IMG/VR virus record: IMGVR_UViG_3300002597_000001
Span: 32,001-96,000 of that record
Length of the DNA stretch: 64,000 bases
Strand: one strand, 5' to 3'
Source of the DNA: a virus
Lineage: Duplodnaviria; Caudoviricetes
Shown: in pieces, positions 3,020 to 64,000 of the stretch
How the letters are laid out: each line of letters opens with the position of its first letter
Position numbering within the stretch: the first letter of the stretch is position 1
The notes under the pieces: model-generated
Database searches by the model: none
The model's input: only the letters and a program-made list of their open reading frames with translations
Told to the model about the DNA's origin: nothing
Program-made: the position numbers and the translations under genes

Positions 3020-3038
3020 AATAACAGTTTTGTTAATA

Positions 3039-3116: not shown

Positions 3117-3141
3117 TCTATAAATTTAAGGAGGAATGCAA

Positions 3142-3918: not shown

Positions 3919-4123
3919 CAACAACTCATCCACAACATCTGGCGGCATCGGATTCTTTGGTCTTTTGACCATTGTGTTCATTGTGCTAAAGCTCCTTGGG
4001 AAGATCTCTTGGAGCTGGTTATGGGTGCTGTCCCCGCTATGGATTTCTCTGGCGCTGGTCGTTCTGGTGGCCGTTATTGTTGCGGTGATAACCATTGTCA
4101 AGACAAAGAAAGAGTATAGGTAA
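3908..4123 (+). CDS. small membrane protein
   Basis: GGIGFFGLLTIVFIVLKL...WSWLWVLSPLWI, two hydrophobic segments. Confidence 0.8.
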   Translation: MKSNNNSSTTSGGIGFFGLLTIVFIVLKLLGKISWSWLWVLSPLWISLALVVLVAVIVAVITIVKTKKEYR

Positions 4124-4154
4124 CCCAAACGATGCTTTCAAGGAGGAATGTGCA

Positions 4155-4685
4155 ATAGATATCTGGACAACAGAAGTATGGAAAGATATTCCTGGATACG
4201 TTGGAGAATATCAAGTTAGCAATTTAGGGAATGTTAAAAGCTTAGAAAGAAAAATACTAAAATCCAATGGCGTGGTATCCACTATCAGAGAAAGAGTTTT
4301 ACGTCAAAATACAGTCAATGGGTATCCTTATGTGAACTTAGGCAATGGCAACTCTAAGAAGGTTCATGTGTTAGTGGCGCTGGCATTTCTTGGCGAAAGA
4401 CCGGATGGAATGGACGTAAGGCACAAAGATGGGAACAAAAGTAATAATAACGTAGATAATCTTGAATATGGTACACGAAGCGAGAACAATCTTGATAATT
4501 ATAAACATTATGGGTATTTCTGCAAAACTCAAAAACTAAACCGAGAAAAGGCTAAGGAAATCAAAAATTTAATACAGCAAGGCGTTCCATTAAAAAAGAT
4601 AGCCAGTCAATACGACGTTGCAAGATCCACGATTTCTGCAATTAAGCGCGGTGATCTTTATGCAGAGGTTGGTGATACCACATGA
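4155..4685 (+). CDS. NUMOD4/HNH homing endonuclease with C-terminal HTH
   Basis: EVWKDIPGY..YQVSNLGNVKS; VHVLVALAF; RHKDGNKSNNNVDNLEY; AT-rich; probable ATA start. Confidence 0.88.
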   Translation: MDIWTTEVWKDIPGYVGEYQVSNLGNVKSLERKILKSNGVVSTIRERVLRQNTVNGYPYVNLGNGNSKKVHVLVALAFLGERPDGMDVRHKDGNKSNNNVDNLEYGTRSENNLDNYKHYGYFCKTQKLNREKAKEIKNLIQQGVPLKKIASQYDVARSTISAIKRGDLYAEVGDTT

Positions 4686-5387
4686 ATATTCTCGTTGCTT
4701 GTGAAGAAAGTCAAGCGGTATGTATTGAGCTGTTGGCCCTTGGCCATAATGCCTTTTCTTGCGATATTCAACCATGCTCCGGTAGTAGACCAGATCGGCA
4801 CATTCACGCGAATGTTCTCCCGCTGTTGAATGGGAATTGCCATTTCTTGACAGTGGGGGGGGGTAGAACGACTGCATAGTATAGATGGTCCGTGGGACAT
4901 GATCTTTGCATTCCCGCCGTGTACACACATCGCAGTCAGCGGCGCGAGACATTTTGAGAAGAAGCGCGAGGATGGGCGGCAGAGGTTGGCAATCGAATTC
5001 TTCTGCCGCTTCCTCGAAGCTGATTGCGAGAAGATCTGCGTTGAAAATCCAATCAACATTATCAATGGCGAGTATGTCATGAGGTGGTTCCCGGATTTGG
5101 TCGAGAAGCATCATCTTCCGGTGCCACCATCACAGACTGTCCAGCCATACTGGTTTGGAGATCCATATAAGAAGACCACAAATTTGTGGCTCAAGGGTCT
5201 GCCGCTTCTGGAACCAACCAATATGGTGGAGCCGAAGCTGGTCCATTACACCAGCGGCGATGGTAAACAGCTTACATTCTCCGCCGACTACGGTGTTGGA
5301 TTTAACACCCAGCATGGTAGCCGCAGGAGTAAAACTTACCCCGGCTTTGCAAAAGCACTTGCTACCCAGCTTGCTGGGCCAGCTTAA
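4682..5387 (+). CDS. DNA cytosine methyltransferase, frameshifted at G9 tract 4855-4863
   Basis: MNILVACEESQ..SCDI in one frame; FPPCTH, ENP, KKTTNLWLKGLP, RSKTYPG in the next; G8 fuses them. Confidence 0.8.
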
Positions 5388-28727: not shown

Positions 28728-31700
28728 TGCCTAATATCGTACAACTTCACAACCATACAGACATCAGTCTTCTCGACTCTGCTACTAAAACTTCCGACTA
28801 CATAGCAAAGTGTCTCGAATATGGACAGACCGCTCTCGCCATCACTAATCATGGATACCTCAAGAACTGGGTCGAGAACAAAATCCTCTGTGACAAAGCT
28901 GGAATCAAGTACATCCACGGTGTGGAAACGTACATCACGAAGACATTGCTTCAGCCTGTGGACGGCGAGATGAAGAAAGTCCGTGACAATATGCACTGTA
29001 TTCTTCTTGCCAAGAACTATGACGGAGTATTGGAACTCAATCAGCTTATCAGCACAGCTTGCGATGATGATCACTTTTATTTCGCGCCGAGAATCAGCGG
29101 GCAGGAATTCATCAATCTCTCTGATAACATAATCGCTTTGTCAGCCTGTCTGGCTGGCCCTCTCAACAAGCTGGACCCAGATGACGAAATGTTCCTGCCT
29201 ATCCTAAAGCGCATGGACTATTTGGAGATCCAGCCTCACAACTGCCAGTCTCAGGCAGATTACAATATATGGCTTGCGAGTCTCGCTCAGAAGTATCACA
29301 AGCCCCTAGTTGCCACAACAGATTCCCACAGCTCTGATTACTATAAGAATGAGTGCCGGGACATTCTGATGCTATATAAAGGTCAGCACTATGAGTCCGA
29401 AGACGAGTTGGATCTCGTATTCAAAAGCTATGACCAGATGGTAGAAGCCTTCCGTGTGCAAGATGCACTCCCAGAGAAACTGTGGATGGAGGCTATTGAG
29501 AACACCAATGATATTGCGGATTCAGTGGAGGACTTCGGACTGGACTTCTCTATGAAATACCCCATCTTATACGGGAGTCCGGAAGCAGATGAGGAGGCGT
29601 ATCGCAAAAACGTCTGGTCCGGCCTTGATGATAAGCTGAGAAAGGGCATCATCCCCAAAGAAGAGGAAGCCCAGTATAGAGAGGACGCCGCTTACGAACT
29701 GGAGGTGTTCTCAAAAATAGGAATGGCAGGCTTCATGCAGGCCGAATCTGAAATCATCTCCTGGTGTAAGGAACAGGGAATGCCCATTGGTCCGTCCCGT
29801 GGATCTGTGGCCGGAAGCCGCTGTGCCTATCTGACAGACATCATCGATCTGGACCCCGTAAGGTGGAACACAAACTTCGCTCGTTTTGCGAATTCCGACC
29901 GTATCGTGGCTGGTGATATCGATGTGGATTGTCGTGAAAAAGACCGCCCTAAAATCTTTCAACACATCATTGAAAAATTCGGGCGCGACAAAGTGGCGCG
30001 AGTCAGTTCATTTGGGACCCTTCAAGACAAGGGGACAATTAAGTTGATTGTCGGAGCGTTGGGAAAGCGTTGGAAAATAGAACACGAGGCTGAAGATGAG
30101 GGCAAATATACGCTCAAGTATGCAGAGTCTATAATAAAAGAATACGAGGCAGACCCTGATAGTTGCCGCACAGCGCACCCGGATATATTCTATTACTTCG
30201 ACGGTTTAGTCGGTACATATATATCACAGTCATTCCACCCGGCAGGCGTTATCATCTCACCAATCACGTTACCAGATCACTATGGGACATTCATCAAAGA
30301 TGGAGAAGTGGTTCTGAATCTGGATATGCTCTGGAGCCACGAGATCGAATTGGTGAAATTCGACATGCTTGTGCTCCGAAACATCGATATCATCTTCGAT
30401 ACTTGTAAATTGGCGGGGATCCCATACCCAAAGAGCCATGAGGTCAACTGGGATGACGAAAAGGTCTGGGAGAACATGATTCAAAGCCCGGTTGGGGTAT
30501 TCCAGATGGAGGGAGATTACGCATTCCAGTGCCTGAAGAAGTATAAGCCACACTCCATCTATGATATGTCCCTTGTAACCGCGAGTATCAGACCGTCAGG
30601 TGCGTCATACAGGGATCAGGTCATGGAGCACAAGATGAACAAGAACCCAACGCCGCTTATTGATGAGATTTTTAAGGACAGCCTTGGATACTGCGTCTAT
30701 CAGGAGCAGGTTATTGCGTTCCTTCAACAGGCTTGTGGGTTCCCAGGTTCCAAAGCCGACACAGTGCGTCGTGCAATTGCAGATAAAGATCCTGCTAAAT
30801 TGGAGTCCATGATGCAGGATGTGATTGATGGATACTGTGAGCTGTCGGACAAACCTAGAGCAGAAGCTGAGGAAGAGGTCAAGGATTTCGTACAAGTCCT
30901 GCGTGATGCATCTGGATACTCATTTGGTTATAACCATAGCGTCGGCTATAGCATGATTGGCTATTTGTGTACGATGCTTCGGACATATTATCCATATGAA
31001 TTCATCGTGGCATTGCTCAATAATGCAGCCAATGAATCAGATGTGGCAAATGCCAAATCGCTTGCCTCTCAGCTCCATATCAAAATCCTTCCACCGAAGT
31101 ACGGCGTCTCCTCAGACACATATGTGTTCAACAAGGACACCAAAGAAATTGCAAAAGGGGCCGCAGACATCAAATATGTCGGCAAAAAGGTTGCGCTTGC
31201 CTTATATAAGATGGCCCACGATGGAAAGCAACGGGCATTCGTGGATGTGATTCTGGATTCCACAAATGGCATCCGCGATATGAACAAACGTCGCATGGAC
31301 GCTCTTATTTCAGTCGGCTATTTCTCAGACTTTGGTAATATTTCCGAGCTATCAAGAATCTACAGCATGGTGGAGGAATTCAAATTTGGCGAGACCAAGT
31401 CCTACAAATGCGACAAAGTTGGCGAACGCCTAAAGTTCATCGAAAAGTACGCCAGCAACCTAAAAAAGGACGGCACCCCCGGAAGCTCATACAAGTTTGA
31501 GTCCAAAGATGCCGTCATAGCATTCCTGCGAGAGGCTGAGCAAGTGATTCTTTCGCTCGGAATCCCTGATGTTTCCTTCAAAGTGAAGGCCGAGAATCAG
31601 CAGGAGTATCTCGGATATATAGATCTGGTCACTGGCCGCGAGGAAGACCGCCGTAAACTCTACATCATGGACTACTATGAGATTATGAACAAGTGGGGCG

Positions 31701-31894
31701 GCAAGGGCGTGTGGAAGGTGCGCATTAAAACCAGATCGATTGGCTCCGGCAAGGAAGCCTCACTAAGTTTGTCTCCAGTATTGGTCCAGAGAAATCCTAT
31801 AGAGAAGGGGAGTGTCATTGAGGTCAAAGAAGAATGGCTCTCGCTCGACAAGGGTCAGTACTGGGTTCTATATAAATACAAAGTTATAGAGTAG
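28724..31894 (+). CDS. dnaE: DNA polymerase III alpha subunit
   Basis: PHP LHNHTDISLLD, RGSVAGS, DIDVD, HPAGVII, KFDML, GYSFGYNHS. Confidence 0.95.
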   Translation: MMPNIVQLHNHTDISLLDSATKTSDYIAKCLEYGQTALAITNHGYLKNWVENKILCDKAGIKYIHGVETYITKTLLQPVDGEMKKVRDNMHCILLAKNYDGVLELNQLISTACDDDHFYFAPRISGQEFINLSDNIIALSACLAGPLNKLDPDDEMFLPILKRMDYLEIQPHNCQSQADYNIWLASLAQKYHKPLVATTDSHSSDYYKNECRDILMLYKGQHYESEDELDLVFKSYDQMVEAFRVQDALPEKLWMEAIENTNDIADSVEDFGLDFSMKYPILYGSPEADEEAYRKNVWSGLDDKLRKGIIPKEEEAQYREDAAYELEVFSKIGMAGFMQAESEIISWCKEQGMPIGPSRGSVAGSRCAYLTDIIDLDPVRWNTNFARFANSDRIVAGDIDVDCREKDRPKIFQHIIEKFGRDKVARVSSFGTLQDKGTIKLIVGALGKRWKIEHEAEDEGKYTLKYAESIIKEYEADPDSCRTAHPDIFYYFDGLVGTYISQSFHPAGVIISPITLPDHYGTFIKDGEVVLNLDMLWSHEIELVKFDMLVLRNIDIIFDTCKLAGIPYPKSHEVNWDDEKVWENMIQSPVGVFQMEGDYAFQCLKKYKPHSIYDMSLVTASIRPSGASYRDQVMEHKMNKNPTPLIDEIFKDSLGYCVYQEQVIAFLQQACGFPGSKADTVRRAIADKDPAKLESMMQDVIDGYCELSDKPRAEAEEEVKDFVQVLRDASGYSFGYNHSVGYSMIGYLCTMLRTYYPYEFIVALLNNAANESDVANAKSLASQLHIKILPPKYGVSSDTYVFNKDTKEIAKGAADIKYVGKKVALALYKMAHDGKQRAFVDVILDSTNGIRDMNKRRMDALISVGYFSDFGNISELSRIYSMVEEFKFGETKSYKCDKVGERLKFIEKYASNLKKDGTPGSSYKFESKDAVIAFLREAEQVILSLGIPDVSFKVKAENQQEYLGYIDLVTGREEDRRKLYIMDYYEIMNKWGGKGVWKVRIKTRSIGSGKEASLSLSPVLVQRNPIEKGSVIEVKEEWLSLDKGQYWVLYKYKVIE

Positions 31895-31899
31895 GAGGA

Positions 31900-32202
31900 A
31901 TGCTTACGAATAAGTTCGAACTAATTCAAACAGCTGCGGTCAGAGCCAACTTCACCCAGGCCGCGATGAAGAAGGCGCTCGAAGCAATCATGTCTACCAT
32001 TGTGGACCATGTCTCTATTGGGGAGGATGTCAGGATTAATGACTTCGGCACCTTTTACCGTGATCACCGCAATGCACGTTTGGGCCGCAATCCAAGCACC
32101 AAAGAAGCGGTGCCAATCCCAGAACGCAATCTCCCGGCATTTAAGCCCGGGAAAGAGTTCATCCAAATCACCGCCGAGATGTCTAAGCCGAGGGAACGAT
32201 GA
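31900..32202 (+). CDS. hup: HU family DNA-binding protein
   Basis: FGTF..ARLGRNPSTKE..PAFKPGK. Confidence 0.92.
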   Translation: MLTNKFELIQTAAVRANFTQAAMKKALEAIMSTIVDHVSIGEDVRINDFGTFYRDHRNARLGRNPSTKEAVPIPERNLPAFKPGKEFIQITAEMSKPRER

Positions 32203-32441
32203 TAGCATTTGAAGATTATTGTGTGGGGTGCCCACGAGAGATTGGGTGTTTAGGCCCATCCTGCCCGAACAAGAATGTCCCAGTTATTTACTGTGATAAA
32301 TGTGGCTGTTATGCCGATTATAGATACGAGGGCAGTGACTACTGTGAAGACTGTTTGAATAATGTCTTACAGGAAGAGTTCAGTAATTTACTTATATCAG
32401 AGAAACTGGAAGCCATCGGCGGCGACTGGGATTACATATAG
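32199..32441 (+). CDS. Cys-rich hypothetical protein
   Basis: multiple CxxC. Confidence 0.7.
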   Translation: MIAFEDYCVGCPREIGCLGPSCPNKNVPVIYCDKCGCYADYRYEGSDYCEDCLNNVLQEEFSNLLISEKLEAIGGDWDYI

Positions 32442-34907: not shown

Positions 34908-36125
34908 ATGTCGAAGCGAAAGGATTGTAAGGGTCGGAACCTAAGAACAGGGGAGGGCCAAAGAGCAAACGGTCTGTATTACTATCAGGCCACAGACAAA
35001 TATGGCAACCGGACAACGCTGACCAGTTGGAGGCTTGTCCCGACAGATCCATTACCAAAGGGTAAGCGAGACTGTATACCGCTTAGAGAACAGGAAGAAG
35101 AATTGACCAAACAGATAAAGTCAAAGCTAGATCTTTCTGTCCGGTGTACTGTGATGGAGGCCGCTCTGAAGTATAAAGAATCCAGAATTGGCCTGAAACC
35201 ACAGTCTATGATTGGTATCAATACGTTTAATAAGGTGCTTGGAAAGTATAAGCTTTCTCACATGCAGATAAACGACGTAGAGGTGAAAGACGTAAAGTGG
35301 TTTTGTCGAGCTCTATACAAAGACAATTACTCTGTTACGACAATCATGAATTACAAAGGGCGTCTGTCAAGCGTGTTTGTCTTCGCGGGTGAAGAACTGC
35401 ATTTACTCACTAAGAATCCAACAGAGTTCAAGCTGAACAGCGTCATAAAAGAGACGCCAAATAAGAGGGGTTCGCTGTCCGAACAAGACAAGGAAGAGTT
35501 CATCCGTTTCATCAAGAGCGATAATGTATCGCGCAAACATTTTGATGAAATTAATCTGTTGCTTGGAACCGGGCTTCGGATCTCAGAGTTTGTAGGACTC
35601 ACAGAAGACAATGTGGATTTCGAGAACCACTGCATTGTGATTGACCATCAGCTCCAAAATTTAACACCGAACCGAGAGTGGCTCACACCAAAGTCGGAAG
35701 CTGGAAACCGAGTGGTGTTTATCAGCGATGATGTTGAGGCGTCTGCGAGGCGACTGATTGAGGCAGCTGGCCCAAAACGATCTGGGTTTACGTGTGGAAA
35801 CACATCAAAGTTTTTCATCCTTGACAGAAATGGAAACCCAAGGAAAGATATTGGTGTTAGGGATATGCTAAGGTCAATCGTCAATCGATACCATCGAAAA
35901 ACAGGAAAAGAGCTTCCCCATATTATTCCACACATGCTCCGACACACATATTGCACAGATCAGGCCCAGTCTGGAATGGACATGATGGCATTGCAATATA
36001 TGATGGGGCATACGGACATGTCTACGACAAGTCGTTACCTGCACACTCAACAAAATCACGCGGCGGCAGAGGCAGCAAGATTGTATCGAAAGCATGCCAA
36101 CGCGGCCTCAAAAGACGCTGTCTGA
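34908..36125 (+). CDS. int: tyrosine integrase with Tn916-like arm-binding N-terminus
   Basis: RKDCKGRNLRTGEGQR; TGLRISE; PKS; PHMLRHT; MGH..Y. Confidence 0.93.
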   Translation: MSKRKDCKGRNLRTGEGQRANGLYYYQATDKYGNRTTLTSWRLVPTDPLPKGKRDCIPLREQEEELTKQIKSKLDLSVRCTVMEAALKYKESRIGLKPQSMIGINTFNKVLGKYKLSHMQINDVEVKDVKWFCRALYKDNYSVTTIMNYKGRLSSVFVFAGEELHLLTKNPTEFKLNSVIKETPNKRGSLSEQDKEEFIRFIKSDNVSRKHFDEINLLLGTGLRISEFVGLTEDNVDFENHCIVIDHQLQNLTPNREWLTPKSEAGNRVVFISDDVEASARRLIEAAGPKRSGFTCGNTSKFFILDRNGNPRKDIGVRDMLRSIVNRYHRKTGKELPHIIPHMLRHTYCTDQAQSGMDMMALQYMMGHTDMSTTSRYLHTQQNHAAAEAARLYRKHANAASKDAV

Positions 36126-38312: not shown

Positions 38313-39633
38313 TTATTTCACACCGCCGTCATACTCGGCAAAGCCGGTCTTGTAGGTCGATGTCGTGCCGTCCACCTTATACTTCACAAGGTATCTGCCG
38401 TTCACAATCGCCAGACATTCACACTGCTCCCACGGGTTGAGAGATCCAGTCTTCAGTTTGAGTGTGGTATCGGCAAAAATCGGCTCTTCGGTGGAACCGT
38501 TCTTGTAGGTTTTTGCCACGTTGAACTCCTCCTTTTCTTCAGTAGTTGCAGGAGTAGTCTCCTGTTCGGGCTTAGTCTCAGCCTGGGTCTCGGCCACCTC
38601 ACCGGACGAACTGGTCACATGGCCATCAGAATCCGCCGTATAGGTTACGCCGTTATACGTCCAAGTTGTATCAGTGACGACGTATCCCTCGGCGTCGAAG
38701 TAATACCAGTATCCACCGATTACCTTCCACTCGCTCTTGGGCCACGAGCCATCCGTGTATCTGTACCACCACTTACCATTGGACTTCTGCCATCCCTCGG
38801 TATACGCCTGATCCAGATACGCCCAGTCGGGGTGCCCGTAACCGTGGATGCGGCTGTAGCTTCTAGAATATTTGCGCCGAAAAACACCGCCACCATTGCT
38901 GATAATGGTTTCCGAAGATGTTGAGCTCGTGTTGCCCTCAATGGTATAGACATAGGTGCTGTCATAGCCGATCACCATGCCAGTATGACTCGGATCGCCA
39001 TAGCTGTCGGAGAAGAAGATCTGGGCACCGATCTCCGGGTTCTTGTCATACTTCCCAGCCGCCTGATAATATCTCACGGCATAAATACATCCCGCCGCAA
39101 GAGACTTGGACGGGAGGTAGAGTGCCTTCTGTGTGCGTTCTGCGCCGAAGCACCGGACGAACACATCAAGGTAGTAGCTTGTACACCATTCATCATTCTG
39201 TTGCTTGTTGACCGCCAATGCGGCGGCGGATAGGTCTCTCGGCCTATCTCTGCGGTTTCATGATTAGGTTATAGCCGCAGTTCAGATCATACCTTCACCC
39301 CTGTCCGGGGGCCAACATACGCCCATAGTTACCTATGTGGCTGTGATCGTTACGGGATCTCTTGCGAGTCTTACCCACGGGGTTGTCCACCTCTGGAGTT
39401 TCCCCGTTTTGAGTTGGTTTCTTCCGCTTATCACTAAGCGGTGGGGCATAAATTCACCCATTTTTGTTGCCGTTCAGCAGATTCGGGGCATTTTCGAACA
39501 GATGCTGTGCAAAGATGGTGTAGTTGTTTCTGCCTGCGTTGCCTGTAAAACTGTCGAGTTGTGAGTTGGTGGCTTTCTCGAGGTAGCCCTCCCACTTCTC
39601 GGCCTCTTCAACAGCTCTTTGTTGTGCTCCCAT
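38313..39633 (-). CDS. CHAP amidase endolysin, spliced (exons 39633-39456 and 39193-38313; 352 aa)
   Basis: GYLEKA..NNYT..NGNKNG|YEWC (catalytic Cys), HTG, TIEGN; binding repeats. Confidence 0.9.
39194..39455 (-). mobile_element. ORF-less group I intron (262 nt) in CHAP endolysin
   Basis: GGGT/GCCC P1, P AAAACGGGGAAAC, Q AACCCCGTGG, P7 GATCA/TGATC, S AAGGTATGATCT, terminal G. Confidence 0.9.
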
Positions 39634-51192: not shown

Positions 51193-54100
51193 TTAAATTG
51201 TGCCGAAGCACGTAAGCATGACACTGACAGCTTCAGACGTACCACGGTTTGTGGTTGACACAAGACGGAACGTCACTTTGCTGTTGCTGAATCCGGCATT
51301 TGCGACATATGCCAGCCAGTTTGCAGTGCTTCCGGCAACCACAAAATTACTATTGGTCGAGTATATCCACGGCGCAGCAATCTCAAACACATTGGAATAG
51401 TACAGGCTCCCGTTCGCGGTCCATGATGTAGGGGTAACCGAATGGACACCATAGAATCTAACATGCCCCTTCGCCGTTTTCTCGTATATCCAGTTGCCAG
51501 ATGTGCCGCTCAAGGTGATGATGTCATGAAGCTCACCTGTAAATCCATCCGCAGCATCGACACTCACATTGACATAGGCGCCGTCAATATCGACACGCTG
51601 TCCAGTAATATTGATATAAAAGGGGCTCTCAAGGGTTAAATTGTTAAAGGAATATATTTTCACGTTGCTGTTCGCGTCGGCTGTGATTTGATAATAACCG
51701 TTGTCAAACCAGATATTGCCAGTGGCCGTAATATTGTTTGCGAACAGGTCGTTGACATCTATTAGCGAAGAACTCAGGGTCCCGGTGGTAATATTACTTG
51801 CGTCCATGTTACTGACTGTCACAATTGACGCGTCAATTGTACCGGCCTTGATATATGTTCCATTAACGTAGAGATTGCCATTATCCATATAGATACCCTG
51901 GAGCCGTCCATTATCTGTCAGGCGGTTAAAAACCCCTTGTACATCAAGGCTGTTATCCAGATCCGTGACTGCCTGATTGGCGCTGTTGATCGCCGCAGCC
52001 AATATCGGATCAGTATACTCAACACTAATACTGCCGCCGTCCTGATATGTAATCTTGCTCCGGGTCCACAGATAGTGTCCATCCTCCCATTCGGGCTGAT
52101 TGGTTGACCACCCGCCATTGCGGCACTGCGTGGAAGACGTTGACAAATAGTATTCATCCTCCACGGTTTTTGTCTCTCTGCCGCGTATGCGAGACCACGT
52201 ATAATCGTTTGGATCGGAACTGTCGTTGATGTTAGTATCCGTATATACACCAATCCACATAGCGCCATCAAATTCCGACGTGCTGAATCGGTACACCGTA
52301 GACAGGACGTCTCCAGACTTTGTCACAAGAGAGTCGCCTGCGATTGTAACCAACTCGGCGGGATAGTTATCAGAATAGGCAAAGTGAACGTAGTACGTGT
52401 CACCATCCTCGCCAGCTTGCCCCGGGATGCCCTGTGCGCCATCCTCACCAGCGAATCTGCTCCATGTGTATGATGCGGCAGTAGCAGGGGCCGTTGCATC
52501 AGTGCCGGAATAGATACCAATATAGGCGTCGCCGGTCTGCCACACGGCATGCATATTGGACCCATCCGCAGATGCGGAATACCTGATATAAACGAAATAG
52601 CCGTCGCCCTGGACGCCGCGATCACCCTGGTCGCCATAAGCGCCAATGATGCAAGGCGTGGATGTGTAGGCGTTGCCGTCCGTATAGGTAACTACTTCGT
52701 AATTCCACAGATATTTATTGGAGTTGGAGATGGTCTGTACAGTGGTTGTCCAGTTATATGTGGTGTGATCCGTGGTAACTCCCGTTGACAAATTCGTTGC
52801 CAGATAGTATTCCACAATACTGCTGATACCAACACCGGCGTCGCCCCACACACCGATCACGCACTTGGAGCCAGTGTCTGTAGAGCTATCTGTGTAGGTC
52901 ACCACTTCGTAGTTCCACAGGTAACGGTTGGTTGCATCTAACGTCGGAACCGTCGTGCTGAAATCGATATCAGCCGGGGCACTCGTCTTGGACGTGCTCA
53001 CAGCGTAATACTCCGTCACACTCTGGATTCCAACGCCGGTGTCGCCCTTTGCGCCGGTATCCCCATATACGCCAATGATGCACGGGGTTGAAGTATAAGA
53101 CGTGTTGTTGGTGTACCCAACCACCTCATAATTCCAAAGGTACTTATCCGTCTTTGTCACCGTCTGTACAGTGGTAGTCCACCCGGTCGATCCCGTGGTG
53201 ATTCCGCTGACGTTTGGTGAGGCCAGATAGTAATTCGTAATAGAATTGATCCCAACGCCATCGTCACCATCGTCGCCGTCTTCTCCGAACACGCCGATCA
53301 CATGCTTGGTGGTTCTTTCGGTGGAGCCATCAGAATATAGCGTTACCTCATAATTCCACAAATATTTATTCGTGGCGTCCATGAGTGGTACGTCTGTGCC
53401 AAACGATGCATCAGCCGGGGCCGTACTCGAAGACGAACTTACGGCGTAGTATTCTGTGACGCCAGTCACGCTGACGCCAGCTGCACCCTGAATACAAACA
53501 GGGGAGGAGTAGGTGATCGTTCCCTCGCCATCTGTCAGCTTTGTGCGTTGCCAAACATATTGGCCGCTTGTCCACGTCGGGGTGCTCGTGCTCCAGCCCG
53601 TCGTGGGGGCTGTGCTCGATGTGCCGCCAACGGCATATTCGACATCCACATCTGTGATTGTGCTTTCTTTGGTGGCATACGCGGACAGATGGAAGTCGCC
53701 TGTCTCCATATCCCAATAGTTGAGTCCGGCTGCATCCTGTAACCTCCCGGTGATGGTCACCGTGTCGGCGTTCAAGATTGCATACTGACCAAATTCACCA
53801 TAAATATTTTCGGCAATCACTCCATATTTTTCTTCACCATTTACAACGATTTTTCCAATGGCTGTTTTAACGGTTGCCCAAGAATCATCTGTAAAAGCCA
53901 ATGTGGAGTTAATGAGCCGGACCTGTTCTGGGGAATAAGATCCGATGGAATCATCCCAACGCTTACCAAGCAAACCAAAGTCTCCAAAGCTCATGTCTTG
54001 GTTATTTGCATTGGACATGATCAGCGTCTTTGTCGCGTCAATTCCATTCTTGTACCACTCCGACATACTCTTATTTGCGTCCTCACCCTTGGATGCCTGT

Positions 54101-56391
54101 CTTGTGACAGCGCCATAAGACGTTGCCATTGACCGGGCCGCAGATAGAACGGAGGCAATGTCAGACACGCCAGTCTGGATCGCCAACACATCCGAGAACT
54201 CCACATCGATGCTTTGAATATCTCCGAAGTCTATCTCAAAGGAGACCATACGAAGCTTATATCCGCGTCCGTCTACGATAACATAGATCCAGTTACCAAC
54301 ATCGAATGCATTCGTCAGATTCTCGAACTCTTTCATCGCAAGCAGATTGGCAAGACTCGCAGAAATAGAATGTTGCAAGGTGCTTGACTTATAAAGTTCT
54401 GTATTTGCTGCTTCGTAAAATCTCTTCGCGTTCTCAATGATTTCTGCGTTGTTCAATCCGTCAGATACGTAATTGTTATTGGAATACTCATCTTCGCGCC
54501 TGTAGGCGACAAATTCCTTCCAAAGTGTTTCACCTATATAAGCTTCAAAATCCAACGTATCGTGAACATCGTTGATCATTGAAACGATGGTTTGAAGAAT
54601 GCCTCTGTGATTGTCGAGAGTTCCGACGGTCTCCAGTTCCTGCGTTCTGAGTATTATTTCAGACTCAATCGCCTGAAGCTTGTTGTAGTACCCAGTATAG
54701 ATACTATGTGTCTCGGCACCGGATGCACCAGCACCTTGGTCGATCAGCACAGCCAAACACGCCTGACAACATTCATCAAACGATTCCAGACAGTCTAGGC
54801 TATAGTGCGTCAGTGCCTGTGCAAAATCTGCAATTGACATGCCGAACAGACCTGTGATGTCATACTGATTCGCGCCGTACTCTGCGATTTTCTTCTGTAC
54901 CAGCTCTTCGGCATAAGACGAAGACGAACCGGTTGCTGTGACCGTCATAGCGCTAGTTGTCGCTGTATCCGACTCATCACTCCAGTTGGTCAGCGTAATG
55001 GTTCCACGCCAAGTTGGCTTGCTATACGATGTCGTGTTCACATCAACATTGTAGACCTCGGTATGAACATATAACTTTGCCAGCGACTTAATGGCCAGAG
55101 CAACTGTGGCAGCGGAGGCGGTGTTCAAGTTCGTGACGGCCACGCTCGTGATGTTAGACACAATTGTGGCGCATTGAGCCGCCGCGCTGGGGACCACGTA
55201 CTGATAGGTCGGCATCATAGATGTCTGCAAATAGCCACTAAAATCAAGTGCCGCGTACTCAGCCTCTACAAGAGACGCAGATCCAGTGAGCTCAATGTCA
55301 TTTCCCGAAACGGTGGTACCGCCAGAATAAATGTGTTGGAGACTGCTGTTGTCTCCCTTGTACTTATCGACCAGTGTATTGTAATCGCTGGAATCGATAT
55401 CAAAAATTCGGTCATCGGCGTAAGTCTGATAGAGCTGGTCATAGGCGTCAATCCGATCCACAAGAGCGTCGGACATGTCGGCTTTCATTTCGTCTGTGAT
55501 TCGCCAAATATAAGATGAGCCGTTTGGATTGCAAGAGCGGATCGCCGCCGTCATAACCTCGTCCCCGGCCTCAAGCCGGAAGCAGTTCTTCACAGAATCT
55601 ACGTTAGTAGAATAATTGATATTGTCAGCCAGATTCTCCTTTGCGATCACAATTCCGGTGCTCTTGCCGTATCCTGGCGTGTAGGATGTACTCCCACACT
55701 TCGGACAAACCTCGCCCTCGAACCTCCTGCCACAAGAGGAGCATTGGTTCATCAGGTCGTATGCACTAATTGTGCGCACAATCTGGTTATCATCGTCCAG
55801 CCCGGAACCGTACACGAACAGACACCCGACTTCCTCTCCGACAGCAACAAACGCATCTATGACTGCTGTGTTGTCAAATGAGAATGTCCTTTGAATAGAT
55901 TTCAGTGAACTGTCTACATGATCAATCTCGTAGTGCGGAGCCTTATACAGTAACCTATCCAGTAACGAGATGGATGCGTCTGCATTATAAAACACAGTCG
56001 GCTTCTTATAGTCCGCCCTCGCGATATCGCTTTCTGTGTTGATCTCAACCCCGTACAGTTCAAGCTGCGACAACTCCGATTCAGACAACGCCTTACCAAT
56101 TACGTTCTTTACGGTCTCATCAGACTCGTCAACCTCGGCACTGATCTCAAATGTCTTATTGATATCCTTATACCAAACTACCTTAAAATCAACGACAGAA
56201 CCCCATAATGGATTTGTTTCCCCATCAACTGTTTTATGGACACGAAATGAGATCTCGTCTGCGCTATTCAGGCTGCGAACATAGTGTGTTCTGTCAAAGC
56301 CATATAGTCTTCCAAGCTTGGTGCCGCTCTTGGTCATCAGAATAAGCTCGGGATCCGCAACAACATGATCCCGGTCAAATTGCAAAACCAT
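51193..56391 (-). CDS. large tail spike/host-specificity protein with tandem repeats
   Basis: 1732 aa; repeated EYY..YLWNYEV..IGVxG units with collagen-like linkers. Confidence 0.82.
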   Translation of the reverse strand: MVLQFDRDHVVADPELILMTKSGTKLGRLYGFDRTHYVRSLNSADEISFRVHKTVDGETNPLWGSVVDFKVVWYKDINKTFEISAEVDESDETVKNVIGKALSESELSQLELYGVEINTESDIARADYKKPTVFYNADASISLLDRLLYKAPHYEIDHVDSSLKSIQRTFSFDNTAVIDAFVAVGEEVGCLFVYGSGLDDDNQIVRTISAYDLMNQCSSCGRRFEGEVCPKCGSTSYTPGYGKSTGIVIAKENLADNINYSTNVDSVKNCFRLEAGDEVMTAAIRSCNPNGSSYIWRITDEMKADMSDALVDRIDAYDQLYQTYADDRIFDIDSSDYNTLVDKYKGDNSSLQHIYSGGTTVSGNDIELTGSASLVEAEYAALDFSGYLQTSMMPTYQYVVPSAAAQCATIVSNITSVAVTNLNTASAATVALAIKSLAKLYVHTEVYNVDVNTTSYSKPTWRGTITLTNWSDESDTATTSAMTVTATGSSSSYAEELVQKKIAEYGANQYDITGLFGMSIADFAQALTHYSLDCLESFDECCQACLAVLIDQGAGASGAETHSIYTGYYNKLQAIESEIILRTQELETVGTLDNHRGILQTIVSMINDVHDTLDFEAYIGETLWKEFVAYRREDEYSNNNYVSDGLNNAEIIENAKRFYEAANTELYKSSTLQHSISASLANLLAMKEFENLTNAFDVGNWIYVIVDGRGYKLRMVSFEIDFGDIQSIDVEFSDVLAIQTGVSDIASVLSAARSMATSYGAVTRQASKGEDANKSMSEWYKNGIDATKTLIMSNANNQDMSFGDFGLLGKRWDDSIGSYSPEQVRLINSTLAFTDDSWATVKTAIGKIVVNGEEKYGVIAENIYGEFGQYAILNADTVTITGRLQDAAGLNYWDMETGDFHLSAYATKESTITDVDVEYAVGGTSSTAPTTGWSTSTPTWTSGQYVWQRTKLTDGEGTITYSSPVCIQGAAGVSVTGVTEYYAVSSSSSTAPADASFGTDVPLMDATNKYLWNYEVTLYSDGSTERTTKHVIGVFGEDGDDGDDGVGINSITNYYLASPNVSGITTGSTGWTTTVQTVTKTDKYLWNYEVVGYTNNTSYTSTPCIIGVYGDTGAKGDTGVGIQSVTEYYAVSTSKTSAPADIDFSTTVPTLDATNRYLWNYEVVTYTDSSTDTGSKCVIGVWGDAGVGISSIVEYYLATNLSTGVTTDHTTYNWTTTVQTISNSNKYLWNYEVVTYTDGNAYTSTPCIIGAYGDQGDRGVQGDGYFVYIRYSASADGSNMHAVWQTGDAYIGIYSGTDATAPATAASYTWSRFAGEDGAQGIPGQAGEDGDTYYVHFAYSDNYPAELVTIAGDSLVTKSGDVLSTVYRFSTSEFDGAMWIGVYTDTNINDSSDPNDYTWSRIRGRETKTVEDEYYLSTSSTQCRNGGWSTNQPEWEDGHYLWTRSKITYQDGGSISVEYTDPILAAAINSANQAVTDLDNSLDVQGVFNRLTDNGRLQGIYMDNGNLYVNGTYIKAGTIDASIVTVSNMDASNITTGTLSSSLIDVNDLFANNITATGNIWFDNGYYQITADANSNVKIYSFNNLTLESPFYINITGQRVDIDGAYVNVSVDAADGFTGELHDIITLSGTSGNWIYEKTAKGHVRFYGVHSVTPTSWTANGSLYYSNVFEIAAPWIYSTNSNFVVAGSTANWLAYVANAGFSNSKVTFRLVSTTNRGTSEAVSVMLTCFGTI

Positions 56392-57278
56392 CAGAACACC
56401 ACCTTCCGCCAGGGTGTATATTTAACCGCAATCGTACAGGGGAGGGTGGAGGTATATATATTTGCGATTCCACGAGTAATCAGAAGGGTACCATCGCCTT
56501 GTGTGGTAATGGCCTGTGACTGCAAAGTCTCAATAGATGTCTCTTCTGTCATCCCCGCAAGCTCATCAATGTTAGCAGTAGATACAAGCTTTGGGTATAC
56601 AAAATTGAAGTGGTCATAAATCGCACGACCACTAGATGATGTAATGGTCATGGTCTTGCCATCGATGGTGATGATCTCGCCGTTCTGACAATCTGTGAAT
56701 GTCGTCACGCGGTTGTCATAGTGGTTTTCCAAAGACAGTGTTCCAGCTGCGTTACATGTAATCACAAAAGAATCAAACGGGATGTCGCCAAACTCATCGG
56801 AGTTGTCATCTATGATGTGGGATGAGTTGGCGGTGAGAGAGAAAGAGTCTTGAATTTGGTTGCCATATCCAAACGGGGCGTTACTGGTAAATTCCAGATT
56901 GAAGCCCACGATGCGCCCGAGATGCTCGACCTTCTCGATGTTGAAAGTTCCATAAAAACAGATCCCGACTAATTCATCTGCCAGAATCCGAAGCTTTTTA
57001 TATTGTTTTTGGTTCAACCAATGCATGATATATCTGTATTCGCCGGTTGTCACCGTAGCGCCATCTGGTTTACAGATACTAATGTTAGCGGTGAACACCT
57101 CGTCGTAGTGTGTGGCAACCAGAGGGAAAGCTCTCCCACTGCGAGTAGAAATCGTGTCGAACGACAGGGCAGACCCTGCGGTTGTCGCTTCCAATCCAGA
57201 ACCAGAATCAAACTGGACAATCTCCATGCCTATATCCGAAAGAAGCCTGCCATCATATTCAAAGTCTTCCGCTCGCAT
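56391..57278 (-). CDS. distal tail (Dit)-like protein
   Basis: DFEYDG..LSD, FTSNAPFGY; between TMP and tail spike. Confidence 0.72.
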   Translation of the reverse strand: MRAEDFEYDGRLLSDIGMEIVQFDSGSGLEATTAGSALSFDTISTRSGRAFPLVATHYDEVFTANISICKPDGATVTTGEYRYIMHWLNQKQYKKLRILADELVGICFYGTFNIEKVEHLGRIVGFNLEFTSNAPFGYGNQIQDSFSLTANSSHIIDDNSDEFGDIPFDSFVITCNAAGTLSLENHYDNRVTTFTDCQNGEIITIDGKTMTITSSSGRAIYDHFNFVYPKLVSTANIDELAGMTEETSIETLQSQAITTQGDGTLLITRGIANIYTSTLPCTIAVKYTPWRKVVF

Positions 57279-57665: not shown

Positions 57666-60600
57666 TTACATATACGTATACTTTGATAATGAACTTCCGC
57701 CATTCATGCGGTCAATTGTAATTGACTGAATGAACTTCTCGAACTCGCGGCTCTGCATCTGTTTCCGCAACTGAGCAACGAAGTCATTGTAGTTCTCGAC
57801 ATGTTCAATTGGGATATTAAGCTGCCCAATGGACACATCCCCGCCTTGTATTGGCGTGTAAGCAGACTTGCCCATCGCCGCCGACAGCGCGGAGGGAATC
57901 GAGACCTGAGAGCGGTTGCTGATTGCACGAAGCGAGTCGCGAAGATCGATAAAGTTTTTGGTGTCGGCTGCGCTCAGAATAGACTCGGGGCTAGAGGAAG
58001 AGCCGTCAACCCATGCAGGACCCGTAAAATCAATCAGACCGCCGTTCTTGTACTTCGGCGAGTTAAAGGTCGGATACGCAGACAGCGCTGGCTTACCGCG
58101 CTTAACCCACGCCGCGTACAGTTCGTTATAATGTGCGTTGATATAATCCTGCACCTTCTCGCCCGTGCCAGCCGGATACTTGGAGTTAATACGCCCGACC
58201 CGAACGGGGGCAGTTCCCCATCCGGTAGCGCTACTGCCGTAGATCCAGATTGCCTCTGCAATCTTGGCGATTGTATCGCTCGTCACCTGATCATTCTTTG
58301 TGACAGCCGCCGCTGGTTTTGTGGTTGTGGTTTTCGTGGTCGTAGTCTTTGCCGGTGCCTTCGCCGCCGTTGTCGTGGTCGTACTCGACACCTTGGCCTT
58401 TGCAGTGGCGTCGCTCTGAGCCTTAATTGCTCCCATCTTTTCGGCAATTTTTCTCAATACCTCATTGATGGTCGTAAAGCTAGTAGTAAAGCCATCTCCA
58501 TACGCCTTCATCACAGCTATCGGTCCGTTTTCACCAGCAATCTTAGTCCAAATATCAGACATGCCTTGTGTTAACTTATAGCCAACACTATCTGCTGTGG
58601 TGAACAGTGTATTCCGAATGCTGCTTGTATCACCACCGACAAGATCTGCGGCAAGGTTCTCACCAAGCGCCGCCATGGCCTCATTAACAGATACAAAGCC
58701 GCCGCCATTGTCTATTGCAAACGCATTGATGACAGCGATCACATCGTTCAGAAGCGTGTCTACGTTCTGAACCTCCCACGACTAAAGTCGCGGGTTCCCG
58801 GTCAAGGCTCCCAACGAAGCCAGATTCCCCGGGCTATCCCCGTAGTTCCTACGGTTCTACATATGTTATTAGGACGCAAGTCCTTGAACTAAAATATTGT
58901 TAGCAGCATTTACATCTCTATCGTGGTGTGTTCCACAACAAGGGCAAGTCCATTCTCTGACAGACAAATCCTTTGCCTCCTTGTTGATGTAACCACACAC
59001 GCTACACGTCTGACTGCTTGCATACCACTTATCTACTCTTTTGATTTCTCGTCCATACCAGTTAGCCTTATATTCTAACTGTCTGGTGAATTCGCTCCAT
59101 GAGACATCTGCGATATTACGAGCAAGACTATGATTTTGGATCATATTCTTTACCTGCAAATCTTCAACGCAAATAATGTCATGCCCACGAATTAGCTCTG
59201 TAGATAATTTCTGCAAGTAGTCATTTCTCTGATTGGCGATATGCTCCTGAAGCCTAGCAACTTTGATTCTCGCCTTATTCCAATTCTTCCCACCTCTTGT
59301 TTTTCGAGACAGGCTTCTTTGCAATTTAGCAAGTTTATCTAATGACTGCTGTAGATACTTCGGGTTTGCATATTTTTTGCCGTCAGATGTAATAGCGAAC
59401 TCTTTGATTCCAAGATCAATCCCGACCACAGAGCCAGTCAACGGCAGTTGCTCCATCTCTACATCTGCACAGCAAAGGGAAATATAATACTTCCCTGAAG
59501 GCATTTGCGAGATCGTTGCATTGAGTATCCTACCATTTGGAATCTGTTTGTCTCTGATTTTTACAAAACCAAGCTTCGGAAGCTTAATATGATCTCCAAA
59601 GAATTCGATATTATTATTTGTAAAAGATGTCCTATATGAGTGTTTATGAATTTTCTTTGACTTAAACTTCGGGTAACCAGAATGCTCAATAAAAAATTTC
59701 TTATAAGCATTGTCTAAATCTCTTAAAGAGTTCTGCAATGCGAACTTATCAACCTCTTTTAGCCATTCTAATTCACGCTTTAGTTGTGTCAAATCCGCAC
59801 AACACTTATTGTAAGTCAAAGTTTCTTTGCTGTCTTCATATAGCTTAATGCGTTTGGAAAGGTAGTAATTATATACAAAGCGAGAACATCCAAATGTTTT
59901 AGCAATAAGCATTCGCTGTTCCTTATTTGGATATGCTCGAAACTTGTATGCCTTTTCCATATGCTCACCTACTTTTCTTTTTGACTACGTACGTATTCGA
60001 TGATTTGCGATTCTGTTTTCTCAGATACTGTGGCAACGAAATAGCTTGGATTCCATAGGTGACCATTCCACAATTGCCTCCGCAACGTATCTCCATACAT
60101 CTTGAATAAATATCTCGCCGAAACACCCTTCATGGCTTTGATCATATTCGGGATGTAGTGCTGCGGGGAGCAATCGATTAATAAATGGATATGGTCTAAA
60201 TCGCCATTACACTCAAGTATCCTAAACCCATTGTCTTGTGCAATGTTGTTGAGAATGTCAAACAACGAACACTCAACAGATGGGGTCAAAACCTTACGCC
60301 TATATTTCACGCACCAGACAATGTGGTACTGGATCGAATATACATAGCCGCGCCCATGTGTTACATCCACTGAAATCACCTCAGTGTAATAATAACATAT
60401 GTATAAAGAAATGACAAGTGATCTCAACAATAATTTACATTTTATTAATAACATATGTAGAGCCATAGGACCCACTTTAATCGTATTAGAGGTTGTCGTT
60501 CACATAGGGTCGCTAGTCCTATGCAGTTCTCTTATGAACTTCTTACACTTTCATGTAAGCACAGACTATATCTTATCCCTCGGCATTATCCGTTAGGGCC

Positions 60601-63600
60601 TATCCACTTCGGACACCAATAGCTTGTGCCCTACTTCCCTCAAGAGGAATAGTCGTTGAACCTTGCCTTTCAGCCTTGGCTGCTGATTGCCCATTATATA
60701 GCGTTTAGGATTTAACCATGCGCCATCTATTCAATTTTTTCTGCTTTCGCAACATTCACGAACACACCATTTGAGGCGTCACGTTGTAGTTTGAATAGCT
60801 TTAGGGGTTTCCAGCAATTCAAATAGTATTGGGCAGGTGTAACCAAACCTGCCGCTACATACACGTTTCCGTATATGCTGACTTGCTGATTGCCTTACTC
60901 ATGACTAAAGTCACGAGTGTGCGGCAATCGGTCAATCAAACCGCTCATTGAGTGCAAGCTCATAGTCTGTATAGAGGTCGTCGAGCAACTGCTTCTGATC
61001 GCTGATATAGCGGTCATACTGAGTTTCCTCAAGGTCAGACCGTGCATCATCTAGGCTAGACCGAAGTTTTTGGACATTGAGCCGCCCCTCTTCTGATGTG
61101 TCACCGCTATAGGCAGACAACTGTTTCTCAAGAGACGCGATATTCTTGGACTGCTCTTCAATCTTGGCTTGATAATCGTGGAGCGACTTAGCGCTACTGA
61201 GGCTGTCGTTGTATTGATCTATCAGCGTTTTGAGAGCATCAAGCTGTTTGTCAATGCCATTATGAACAAGGTCGATGATGGCATCGCGCTCATCCTCTGC
61301 GGCTGAGATAGACTCCTGCTGAAGCTTGAGCAGTTCTTCGCGCCGCTTTAGAATCTCGGTGTTATACGGATCATCCGCCAGTTGCTTATTGACTTTGAGC
61401 ATCTCGTCGCGGTACTGATCCGCCTGTGCCATGAGGATGTTATAATTCTGGCCGCGCAGACCCAAGGTAGCCATACCTGCATCTGTGAGTTTTCCGCCGT
61501 CATCAAAGAGCTCGTCGCGGTCGAGGAGGTCAATCAGGAAGTTGGACTCCTGCGTGAGCTGGGAGATTCTGTCCTGTACAAAGTCAAAATAGCCCCACTC
61601 AACCTCACGCATGGTCTTGGCATATTCGAGAAGGCTTGTGTTGGCTTCATCAATAGCTTCTTTGACACCATTTATCTCGGCCTGCATTGAATACCACGCC
61701 GAACTATACATCTCTATCTCGCCGCTATTCATAGCCTCAGACATGGCGTCTACCATATCGTCAAGCTGTTTATTCAAGATAGAGATGTTTTGCTTTTCGA
61801 CATTAGATAGCGCGGTATAATACTCCGTGCTGATGAGATACCCCTTCTGCTCAAGCTGCTCGATTCCGTTCTGATATGTGTTTGTGAGGTGTTCATACAG
61901 TTTGAGCTGGTTGTTGTACTCCTCTTGTACATTGTCAAAGTTGTCCTGATATAGTTGCGCCATTGACTCGTGGAGCTCATCTACAGCATCGCTGGCATCA
62001 AGGGCTTTGTCATAAAGGTCCTTGTATTGCTTTATCTTTTCGTTAAGCTCTTTGTCAGTAATGGTTTCAAGGTTGATCTTCCCCTCGCGTACCAGTGCTT
62101 TATAGGACTCATCTAGGCTGATGGTCTCGGCGGCATGCATATACTCATCATACGCCTGCTGTTGATAATCTATCTTATCCGCAACTGTGGCAATTTCTTC
62201 GCCAAGAGCACTTGTGCGGGTTGTGAGAGACTTAAACGTAGACCCAGCAATACGAGCAAGGCTTTTGATTCTGCGCTCGATACGATCAAGCAGGACTTCA
62301 ATCCAATCGAGATCTTCTGCGAAATCATCGGCAGAAGAAGACGCCTTAGATGAGGCTGTTTTGTTACCGTTGTAGGAAGAGGAAGATTTGTAGGAGTTAG
62401 AAGAGCTCGAAGAAGACGAGCTAGACCCTAGGGAAGTAGTTGATGATGTCTTCCTGCGTCTCTTACCGCCAGACCCAGAATCAAATGCGGTTCCGGTCGC
62501 CAACGCATTTCCGCGATTCTTACCATACTTAATTCGTCCGTATTTAAATATCTGCTCAGTTTGTTCGGCATTGAAAATAATGTCGCCCTTCTTGTAATTA
62601 AAGAAGCCAGCACCATTTTCACCGATGGTATAATAATGGCCATCACGTACAAGGAGCTCAGTTCCTAATTCTCCGCCAAGAGCAACACCACTGTTTTTGG
62701 TTCCCCAGTAGCCATGAGCCATTGCAGTGCCTCTGGCGTGTGCGGTTCCAGAGAATCGTGCAGTACCATATGCACCACCACGCCCAGTATCACCACGAGC
62801 AACATAATTCACATAGCGTGTGATGCTAGAAAAATATGTTGGGAGATTACTAGTATTCGGCGTATATGTTACAGTACGTGTTCCGCCATACGTTACAGCA
62901 TTAACAGCGTCGATAAGCCCCGTTTCTGGAGTATACGTTGTTGTCCTGTTACCACCATCTGATTTTGCATCTTCCGCGTCTGTGTCTTCGGTATCAGCAA
63001 AGTAAGTAACGAACACAGACGGATCCATACTTTGCAAGCTTGCCAGCAGAGAATCAGCAGACGTTGTATCCAAATTAAGGTCGGCAGGAATAACCGCTTC
63101 CATGCTTTGGATTTGCGCAAGAAGCGCATCCGCATCCGCCTGTGCCTGCCCATCATCAATGCCAAGCTTTGCCGTTGCATCTGCCGCCGCAAAGCTTTGC
63201 AACAAGCCAAGGAGCATATTCAGATCTCCCTCGGCAGTTGAGGAATTCACATCAACAGACATCAGCGTCGGGTACTCAAGACTCAGCTTCTCGGCCTCAA
63301 GCGCACCAAGAACTTGGACGGCCTCTTCAGCCCCAGCAAGTTCCATGTTGATAGTACCATCACTATTTCGCATACCATCAAGGATGGATTGCACCTCTGT
63401 TATTTGGCTGTTAATACTGTCAAGGTCTGTCGAGTCAATATCAAATGATATATCTGTGAGACCGAGGCGTGTGAGCTGGTCGGCAGATTCTTGAGCTGTT
63501 TCCTTGAAACTCTGGAGTGCCGAAAGTGGAGTGTCAATATTGACATTCATCCCAGCATCTTTCATGGCTTGCTCAAGGAGTTGGATGGATTCAACAGACA

Positions 63601-64000
63601 TGCCGGTTAGTTCGGATACACGTTGTAAATCGGACGCAGTCCAATCAAATGCATACGACCCATCGTCACCCACTTGCACCAGACTGTCATCCAATGTGTC
63701 TACAGCGTCGAGGAAATTGTAAAGACCATCCGAGGAAAGCTTTTCGCTGTCTTCATCATATTGGAAGAAATCCATAATGCTGAAATCAGTACCGGCAATC
63801 TTTTGTGTCAGCCTATCGAAGTCTGCATAGACATCACTGGTACGAGCGCTGGCCGCAAGCATTAGGTCAAGATACTCCGTTACTTCAGAATCAGACACCC
63901 ATCCAAGATCAATAAGCTCTTTAACATTTTCGTAGCTATCGCCGATATTGGCGTATGCATCTCTGTTGTCGCCGCTGGACTGAGCCTGTACAAACTTGTT
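57666..64000 (-). CDS. tape measure protein (5' partial), exons 64000-60935 and 58766-57666
   Basis: Long helical ORF open to window edge; removing the IStron gives ...NERFD|[12 protein letters not shown]... in frame. Confidence 0.88.
58869..59960 (-). CDS. tnpB: TnpB RNA-guided endonuclease
   Basis: [33 protein letters not shown]. Confidence 0.95.
59969..60370 (-). CDS. tnpA: IS200/IS605 Y1 transposase
   Basis: [28 protein letters not shown]. Confidence 0.95.

Follow-up and report, generated by a model that had tools for sequence, protein, structure and literature searches.

The 64,000-nt stretch of DNA analysed here (the window) covers positions 32001–96000 of the IMG/VR record IMGVR_UViG_3300002597_000001, and within it a phage tape measure gene is interrupted by an IStron, an element in which a group I ribozyme and the genes of an insertion sequence (IS) lie between the same two ends. 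The best overall explanation, which we hold with high confidence and which includes its presumed functioning, is that this is a complete, apparently autonomous group A (CdISt1-like, IS200/IS605-type) IStron, inserted in sense orientation 3′ of a TTGAT motif in the tape measure gene. Both the IStron and the whole tape measure gene are on the minus strand, and positions refer to the window unless marked as genome positions (Table 1). An initial annotation had proposed an IStron at 58767–60934, and its parts list and coordinates proved exact.

The GC content of the IStron (40.6%) is below that of the flanking exons (45–56%), which points to a foreign origin. The TTGAT named as target in the initial annotation is present directly before the left end; it is the published target-adjacent motif (TAM) of group A IStrons and of ISDra2 (PMC4227781; bioRxiv 10.1101/2023.11.20.567912), and it adjoins 8 of 10 related IStrons. 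A subterminal hairpin was found at each end. The one at the left end recurs in relatives, and the one at the right end (CCCGCGAC-TTTA-GTCGTGGG) is imperfect and matches it, the two having in common a GAC-TTTA-GTC core with one G:T pair each. Terminal inverted repeats and a target-site duplication are absent, and the flanks, TTGAT on one side and AACGT on the other, are unrelated.

Both transposon genes are intact, as had been claimed, with full-length matches to the ISDra2 proteins and with catalytic residues kept. The tnpA product aligns over its full length with ISDra2 TnpA (2xm3, E 4.6e-41), retaining the HUH motif (DHIHLL) and the catalytic tyrosine (IEYV). TnpB aligns over residues 2–361 with ISDra2 TnpB (8bf8, 8exa, 8h1j; E 7.5e-106) and keeps the aligned RuvC Asp, Glu and Asp together with the CxxC..CxxC zinc finger.

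The 5′ end of the element carries a group I ribozyme on the same strand as the tape measure gene, and its match to the full RF00028 model (77.2 bits) bears out the full intron core of the initial annotation. The core motifs fit subclass IA2, and so does the similarity to the ribozyme in the IStron of Clostridioides phage ES-S-0173-01 (79.5% identity, 485 nt). The left-end hairpin sits between the 5′ splice site and the internal guide AGUCAG, that is, in the loop of P1, where it had been placed before. The motif (U)AGUCAG just before P2 is kept in 8 of 10 other IStrons compared; support for P1 comes from pairing rules and conservation and not from covariation, since the target is invariant. Some 70 nt after P9 begins a predicted 25-bp helix which loops tnpA and tnpB out of the intron. 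An equivalent helix of ~17–27 bp, at the same position and with many compensatory double changes, was present in all 11 IStrons compared.

The right end of the element is also a predicted omegaRNA, the guide RNA of TnpB. In an alignment of 20 homologous right ends, its scaffold has 26 consensus pairs in three stems, 15 of them with compensatory changes, and the window copy fits every pair, which supports a functional scaffold. The omegaRNA had been described as ending in G; this base (58767) is at the same time the terminal G of the intron. The 24 relatives retrieved with a search pattern ending in CA[G/A] all terminate in CAG, and their 3′ flanks are unrelated. The predicted guide was assigned by position, with a 16-nt length borrowed from ISDra2 (PMC8612924). 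The 3′ arm of the long helix contains the sequence CCGUAGG, shared with the first omegaRNA hairpin, therefore the two folds cannot coexist. The splicing fold and the guide-RNA fold would thus be mutually exclusive in this IStron family, which matches the published antagonism: CdiIStrons splice in vivo at the left- and right-end boundaries, and their omegaRNA competes with splicing (bioRxiv 10.1101/2023.11.20.567912). The scaffold region (58780–58860, minus strand) also gave a weak Rfam match to RF02841, the Enterococcus small RNA Ref70 (24.7 bits; gathering score 115). The Ref70 family could in its turn represent guide RNA from an IS605 or IStron element.

Removal of exactly this element restores the host reading frame. 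The upstream exon (exon B) ends CGG TTT GAT at 60935 and the downstream exon (exon C) opens AAC GTA GAC ACG at 58766, giving a phase-0 join LNERFD-NVDTLL (the hyphen marks the junction here and below), while the first three bases of the insert are TGA, in frame with the upstream exon. The predicted spliced sequence runs from CGGTTTGAT directly into AACGTAGAC and contains TTTGAT-AACGTA. Querying with exon C for longer proteins returned 24 relatives, among which 16 uninterrupted homologues show the end of exon B and the start of exon C without a gap; the join falls inside the motif LN.R(L/F)D-N(V/I)D.L, conserved in all 16. The same motif is uninterrupted in two IMG/VR phages (L019 and L020). 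This contiguity makes the junction nucleotide-precise and phase 0, so the in-frame exon joining of the initial annotation stands. If the element were left in place, the gene might instead yield separate polypeptides, a tape measure protein cut short at the intron TGA and an independently translated C-terminal protein, for which an in-frame GTG at 58742, eight codons into exon C, is available. This GTG is not preceded by a ribosome-binding site, however, and all homologues are single chains across the junction, inside a conserved motif, which leaves this account with next to no probability. Removal of the IStron from the message is the reading we retain.

The source record is 108,778 bp long, has terminal repeats with a 30-nt overlap (a circular assembly) and is rated 100% complete. 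Its gene content includes a Tn916-type integrase (34908–36125), a Pol III alpha subunit, a primase-helicase and an anaerobic ribonucleotide reductase, and the phage is temperate. From its sequence it looks like a phage of anaerobic Bacillota of the gut or rumen; the tape measure and TnpB relatives stem from gut and rumen Clostridia.

The interrupted gene is, by its domains, length and location, the tape measure gene. Exons B and C, each queried alone, had no Pfam match. The last 1000 amino acids of exon B align with uninterrupted homologues of 1200–1970 amino acids at up to 60% identity, and the homologues bearing PF10145 span exon C. Further upstream and outside the window, exon A (376 codons) matches TIGR01760 (58 bits; cut-off 28.8), PF10145 and 12 tape-measure PHROGs. 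Together the three exon frames amount to ~2590 codons without further stops. Exon C is followed by a gene for a DUF6558 tail protein (56391–57278) and then by one for a 1732-aa tail/host-specificity protein (51193–56391); tail fibre genes are among those downstream. The gene therefore has the core domain and great length of a tape measure gene, and lies just upstream of distal tail and tail-tip genes.

Table 1. Features of the IStron and of the tape measure gene that carries it. Positions are those of the window; nt, nucleotides; aa, amino acids; HTH, helix-turn-helix; SL, stem-loop.
Feature	Position	Strand	Details
Whole IStron	60934 to 58767	-	2168 nt; ends GGTTCAG, last base G; from sequence
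TTGAT	60935..60939	-	Last 5 bases of 5′ exon; predicted TnpA target, TnpB TAM and 5′ strand of P1
Left-end subterminal hairpin	60888..60929	-	Outer stem GATTGCC/GGCAATC; inner ACTCGTGAC-TTTA-GTCATGAGT; in P1 loop
Group I ribozyme core (P1/P2 to P9)	60542..60922	-	RF00028 full model (1–253), E 7e-18; gathering score 50
Internal guide AGUCAG	60878..60883	-	Pairs with UUGAU/U as putative P1, U.G wobble at splice site; by inspection
Long-range helix, 5′ arm	60446..60470	-	Predicted, 25 bp; RNAduplex -34 to -39 kcal/mol
Promoter-like site ahead of tnpA	60389..60417	-	TTGTCA, 17 nt, TG-TATTAT; weak, as such sites are no commoner than in shuffled sequence
tnpA, Y1 HUH transposase	59969..60370	-	133 aa; GTG start at 60370 after GAGGTGA; PF01797 (Y1_Tnp), E 1.9e-38
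tnpB, predicted RNA-guided nuclease	58869..59960	-	363 aa; PF01385 (OrfB_IS605), PF07282 (Cas12f1-like TNB zinc ribbon), PF12323 (HTH)
Long-range helix, 3′ arm	58847..58871	-	Begins at tnpB stop codon; overlaps 5′ half of first omegaRNA hairpin
omegaRNA scaffold and right end	58767..58856	-	90 nt; SL1 58854–58840, variable SL2, right-end hairpin 58794–58775, then AGGTTCAG
Predicted omegaRNA guide	58751..58766	-	First 16 nt of 3′ exon, AACGTAGACACGCTTC; by position
Tape measure exon B (middle exon)	60935..64000	-	Open past window end to genome 98493; 1853 codons in total; frame walk
Tape measure exon C (last exon)	57666..58766	-	366 codons and stop; aligns to C-termini of uninterrupted homologues

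The same architecture was found at unrelated sites in three other phages and at seven gut bacterial loci. Two of the phages are from IMG/VR: in one (L011:2521-4699) the IStron again lies in a tape measure gene, with exons mapping to the contiguous positions 816/817 of PHROG 4211, and in the other, a 123-kb phage (L015, about 2923–4707), it is in the large terminase gene. The third is the Clostridioides phage ES-S-0173-01 (GenBank, an unannotated record), with an IStron in the large terminase gene (L005:5988-7889) whose tnpA has decayed. The bacterial copies made up 7 of the 20 closest TnpB loci scanned in species-representative genomes, and their carriers are Faecalimonas, Tyzzerella, a Negativicutes metagenome-assembled genome (MAG), Phascolarctobacterium, Megamonas (two copies) and an Erysipelotrichaceae MAG. 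Most relatives have the 5′ layout TTGAT/T, left-end hairpin, (U)AGUCAG and P2, with L011 and L015 deviating, and most have the 3′ layout AGAACCGUAGGAACUACGGGGAUAGCC, a variable stem and GCGACUUUAGUCGUGGGAGGUUCAG, after which the element ends. The 3′ flanks differ between loci, as expected for a transposon guided by whatever adjoins it.

These relatives bear on whether the element is one unit at all. The phage has other group I introns, one of them in a late gene and 71–74% identical to the IStron ribozyme, and it carries elsewhere an intron-less tnpB element with similar end hairpins, both of which would suit an origin in two steps, with a separate IS605 element entering a phage group I intron of the ordinary kind and only an apparent coincidence of transposon ends and splice sites. 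The left-end hairpin, however, is upstream of the ribozyme core in the P1 loop and TTGAT ends the 5′ exon, so that the transposon contains the whole ribozyme, and the same composite with the same ends recurs at ten other unrelated sites. Such a two-step origin is therefore very improbable, and we continue to treat the element as a single IStron.

A phage-specific IStron lineage was also considered and rejected, as the TnpB tree interleaves phage with bacterial copies and IS with IStron copies and supports no phage clade; for some of the loci labelled IS in this tree, the available upstream sequence is too short to rule out an intron. Two IMG/VR phages, L011 and L012, have near-identical TnpB proteins and left and right ends, with a ribozyme in L011 and none in L012, which may reflect recent acquisition or loss of the intron portion. 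Separately, the TnpB of a 124-kb IMG/VR phage contig (L017) is identical to that of a 656-kb contig of Flavonifractor sp. An82 (L044), and the viral contig may be a prophage of Flavonifractor.

The tape measure gene carries a second insertion just past the end of the window (genome 98494–99901; L008:6494-7901). It is ~1.4 kb long, on the minus strand, divides the TIGR01760 domain in two and carries a 395-aa CapR/DUF4379 zinc-finger, PD-(D/E)XK-like, homing-endonuclease-like gene (PHROG 559, 9084, 7140). RF00028 was absent at E up to 1 in the whole insertion and at E up to 10 in its 3′ part, no other Rfam family matched it, and hand inspection placed no splice sites, including the 3′ site. With two insertions in one gene, an intact protein would need two removals.

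Other candidate introns were seen in this genome. The classical group I intron with 71–74% identity to the IStron ribozyme runs across the record ends (L009:1-283 and L008:15651-16778, minus strand) in its late gene; a 329-aa endonuclease gene, paralogous to that of the second insertion, follows its core, and the flanking exons match only PHROGs of unknown function. A sub-threshold RF00028 match (window 20194–20450, plus strand, 28.6 bits, E 1e-6 for the genome) directly after the nrdD frame (18333–20189) may be a further intron. A candidate intron without an open reading frame in the lysin gene (window 39100–39560) had no Rfam match at E up to 5, which neither confirms nor excludes it. The genome is thus permissive for introns, favouring the view that such insertions are tolerated.

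A tnpB-only IS605-family element without a ribozyme was also observed in an intergenic position, right after a stop codon (genome ~30990–32272; L004; window 1–272, plus strand). Its TnpB is 46% identical to that of the IStron and keeps the catalytic residues, with no ATG, GTG or TTG start. The end hairpins resemble those of the IStron and the right end is TTCA; TTGAT was not found before the left end. The IStron TnpA might mobilise this element in trans.

Another possibility is that the IStron is a dead or harmful insertion, having hopped from the host chromosome into a prophage where, with little or no splicing, no functional tape measure protein is made and the phage is defective or decaying. 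This would suit a temperate phage with an integrase, the bacterial copies among the closest TnpB relatives, the second, Rfam-unrecognised insertion splitting the TIGR01760 domain of the same gene, and the fact that no relatives with the same insertion were seen. We nevertheless regard it as unlikely: all parts of the element are intact, with a ribozyme score on a par with those of bacterial IStrons (66–80 bits), the record has terminal repeats and is rated complete, and the three tape measure frames are open throughout with no other stops. Other phages, furthermore, have sister IStrons in tape measure or terminase genes, a pattern that lethal insertions could hardly sustain.

Splicing, transposition and RNA-guided cleavage by this copy are all inferred, the steps of the mechanism being carried over from published work on CdISt1/CdiIStrons, CboIStron and ISDra2. 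On the late tail transcript, the ribozyme would fold with UUGAU/U and AGUCAG paired as P1 and with the 25-bp helix excluding both genes, and its self-excision would give the full-length tape measure protein; translation of unspliced RNA would stop at the intron-initial TGA. TnpA would excise the element in single-stranded form and reinsert it beside another TTGAT. Unspliced RNA would also be the source of an omegaRNA with a 16-nt guide from the start of the next exon, directing TnpB to cut TTGAT followed by AACGTAGACACGCTTC, which is the vacated or intron-less allele, and recombination with an occupied copy would then restore or spread the element. Through the shared CCGUAGG, the splicing fold and the omegaRNA fold would exclude each other. 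The role put forward in the initial annotation, RNA-guided homing into co-infecting phages or interference with them, along with tail assembly that needs splicing, is plausible given the homology to ISDra2 TnpB and the published IStron work.

Several points weigh against a functioning IStron in this gene. The case for this particular copy is built from sequence and homology. The putative P1 is short (6 bp, two of them G.U, with the splice-site U.G flanked by other pairs), and inspection of the guide region gave no P10 pairing with the 3′ exon, an absence to be expected in an element that transposes to varied sites. Were the second insertion not removed, the gene would be broken whatever the IStron does, and, the phage being temperate, the insertion could be recent and in a silent prophage. 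The initial annotation had stressed that the guide plus TTGAT is exactly the empty allele. This is true, but follows from the position of the element and holds by construction for any IS605-family element, and no natural empty allele was found: the exact 25-mer and the codon-degenerate empty junction had zero matches in viral contigs, and the 21-mer of TAM and guide had zero in metagenome contigs. These negatives are weak, as records very near this genome may be missing from the searched sets. The nearest uninterrupted tape measure genes are those of L019 and L020, found via exon B. They have TGGAT/AATGTTGATGC and TTGAC/AACGTAGATGCTTT at the site, and neither combines the TAM with a guide match. 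No relatives of exon C were found in viral contigs. Within the genome itself, among 383 TTGAT sites, the best guide match was 9 of 16 bases, and a self-target is thus absent.

A more far-reaching proposal is that, on a phage, the TnpB-omegaRNA complex acts as an RNA-guided gene drive or exclusion weapon, which cuts intron-less tape measure alleles when sister phages co-infect the cell or superinfect a lysogen. We consider this a speculative possibility, and one less likely to be right than wrong. If it is true, sister phages would be converted or have their tail gene knocked out, and homing would be much more efficient than it is on a chromosome because so many genome copies are replicating. 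The presence of IStrons in essential late genes of large Bacillota phages, such as those for tape measure and terminase, would then be a recurrent strategy and not an accident.

The element belongs with the group A IStrons (CdISt1/CdiIStrons of Clostridioides difficile and those of Megamonas, Fusobacterium and Enterococcus). The published criteria for this group include insertion 3′ of TTGAT, ATTAT or TTTAT and a TCAG terminus (PMC4227781; bioRxiv 10.1101/2023.11.20.567912). The order is the same, with the ribozyme first, then an IS200-type tnpA and an IS1341-type tnpB, as are insertion after TTGAT, the 3′ end TCAG and a 5′ exon ending in U with a flanked U.G pair. Subterminal hairpins, the lack of target duplication, an omegaRNA in the 3′ untranslated region of tnpB and element ends that coincide with the splice sites are likewise held in common. 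Our element differs in that its host is a phage tape measure gene and not a bacterial chromosome, and in that TnpA is full length, whereas it is so in none of the eight copies of C. difficile 630 (bioRxiv 10.1101/2023.11.20.567912). The helix enclosing the genes is also ~25 bp and AU-rich, compared with 6–10 bp in the group A survey (PMC4227781), which may be a minor difference.

The initial annotation, in which IStrons such as CdISt1 were said to be described mainly from Bacillota chromosomes, overrated the novelty of the finding. Phage-borne IStrons were published in 2014, namely CbISt3 and CbISt4 of the C. botulinum phages c-st and D-1873, the only ones reported then (PMC4227781). These belong to group B, however, and are of the IS607 type with a serine recombinase, insert after GG, end in CGG and have an unusual 5′ splice site. 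A 2008 publication described tape measure genes with group I introns (TMP-IVS1-3, Bacillus cereus-group prophages; PMC2504315), and in 2024 the intron endonuclease of PhiPA3 gp210 was shown to harm a co-infecting phage (PMC11620839). Like our element, these are self-splicing introns in an essential late gene with a nuclease aimed at the intron-less allele and a possible role in homing or competitor exclusion; the nuclease predicted here differs in being guided by RNA and a 5-nt motif, so that it would be retargeted with each transposition, and in coming with its own transposase. ISDra2 of Deinococcus radiodurans (PMC8612924; 8bf8, 8exa, 8h1j, 2xm3) shares the full-length TnpA and TnpB alignments, TTGAT as TAM and target, and a right-end guide RNA, but is intron-less and cannot sit harmlessly within a coding sequence. 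Homing into co-infecting phages by transposon nucleases is a concept already tabulated in a 2026 review (PMC13565253). No paper turned up in the literature searched that places a group A IStron in a structural gene of a phage. The element is a clean member of its family in an under-described, but not unprecedented, setting, and adds no new mechanism.

What it offers is a natural, fully intact IS605-type IStron, with TnpA, TnpB, omegaRNA and ribozyme, in an essential late phage gene, a setting in which tail assembly is a clear read-out of splicing and a single cell brings together many copies of the genome. It could be used to test TnpB-driven homing between co-resident genomes, and the competition between splicing fold and guide-RNA fold. 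Together with the sister copies in tape measure and terminase genes, it suggests that phage late genes can be colonised by IStrons just as by classical endonuclease-bearing introns.

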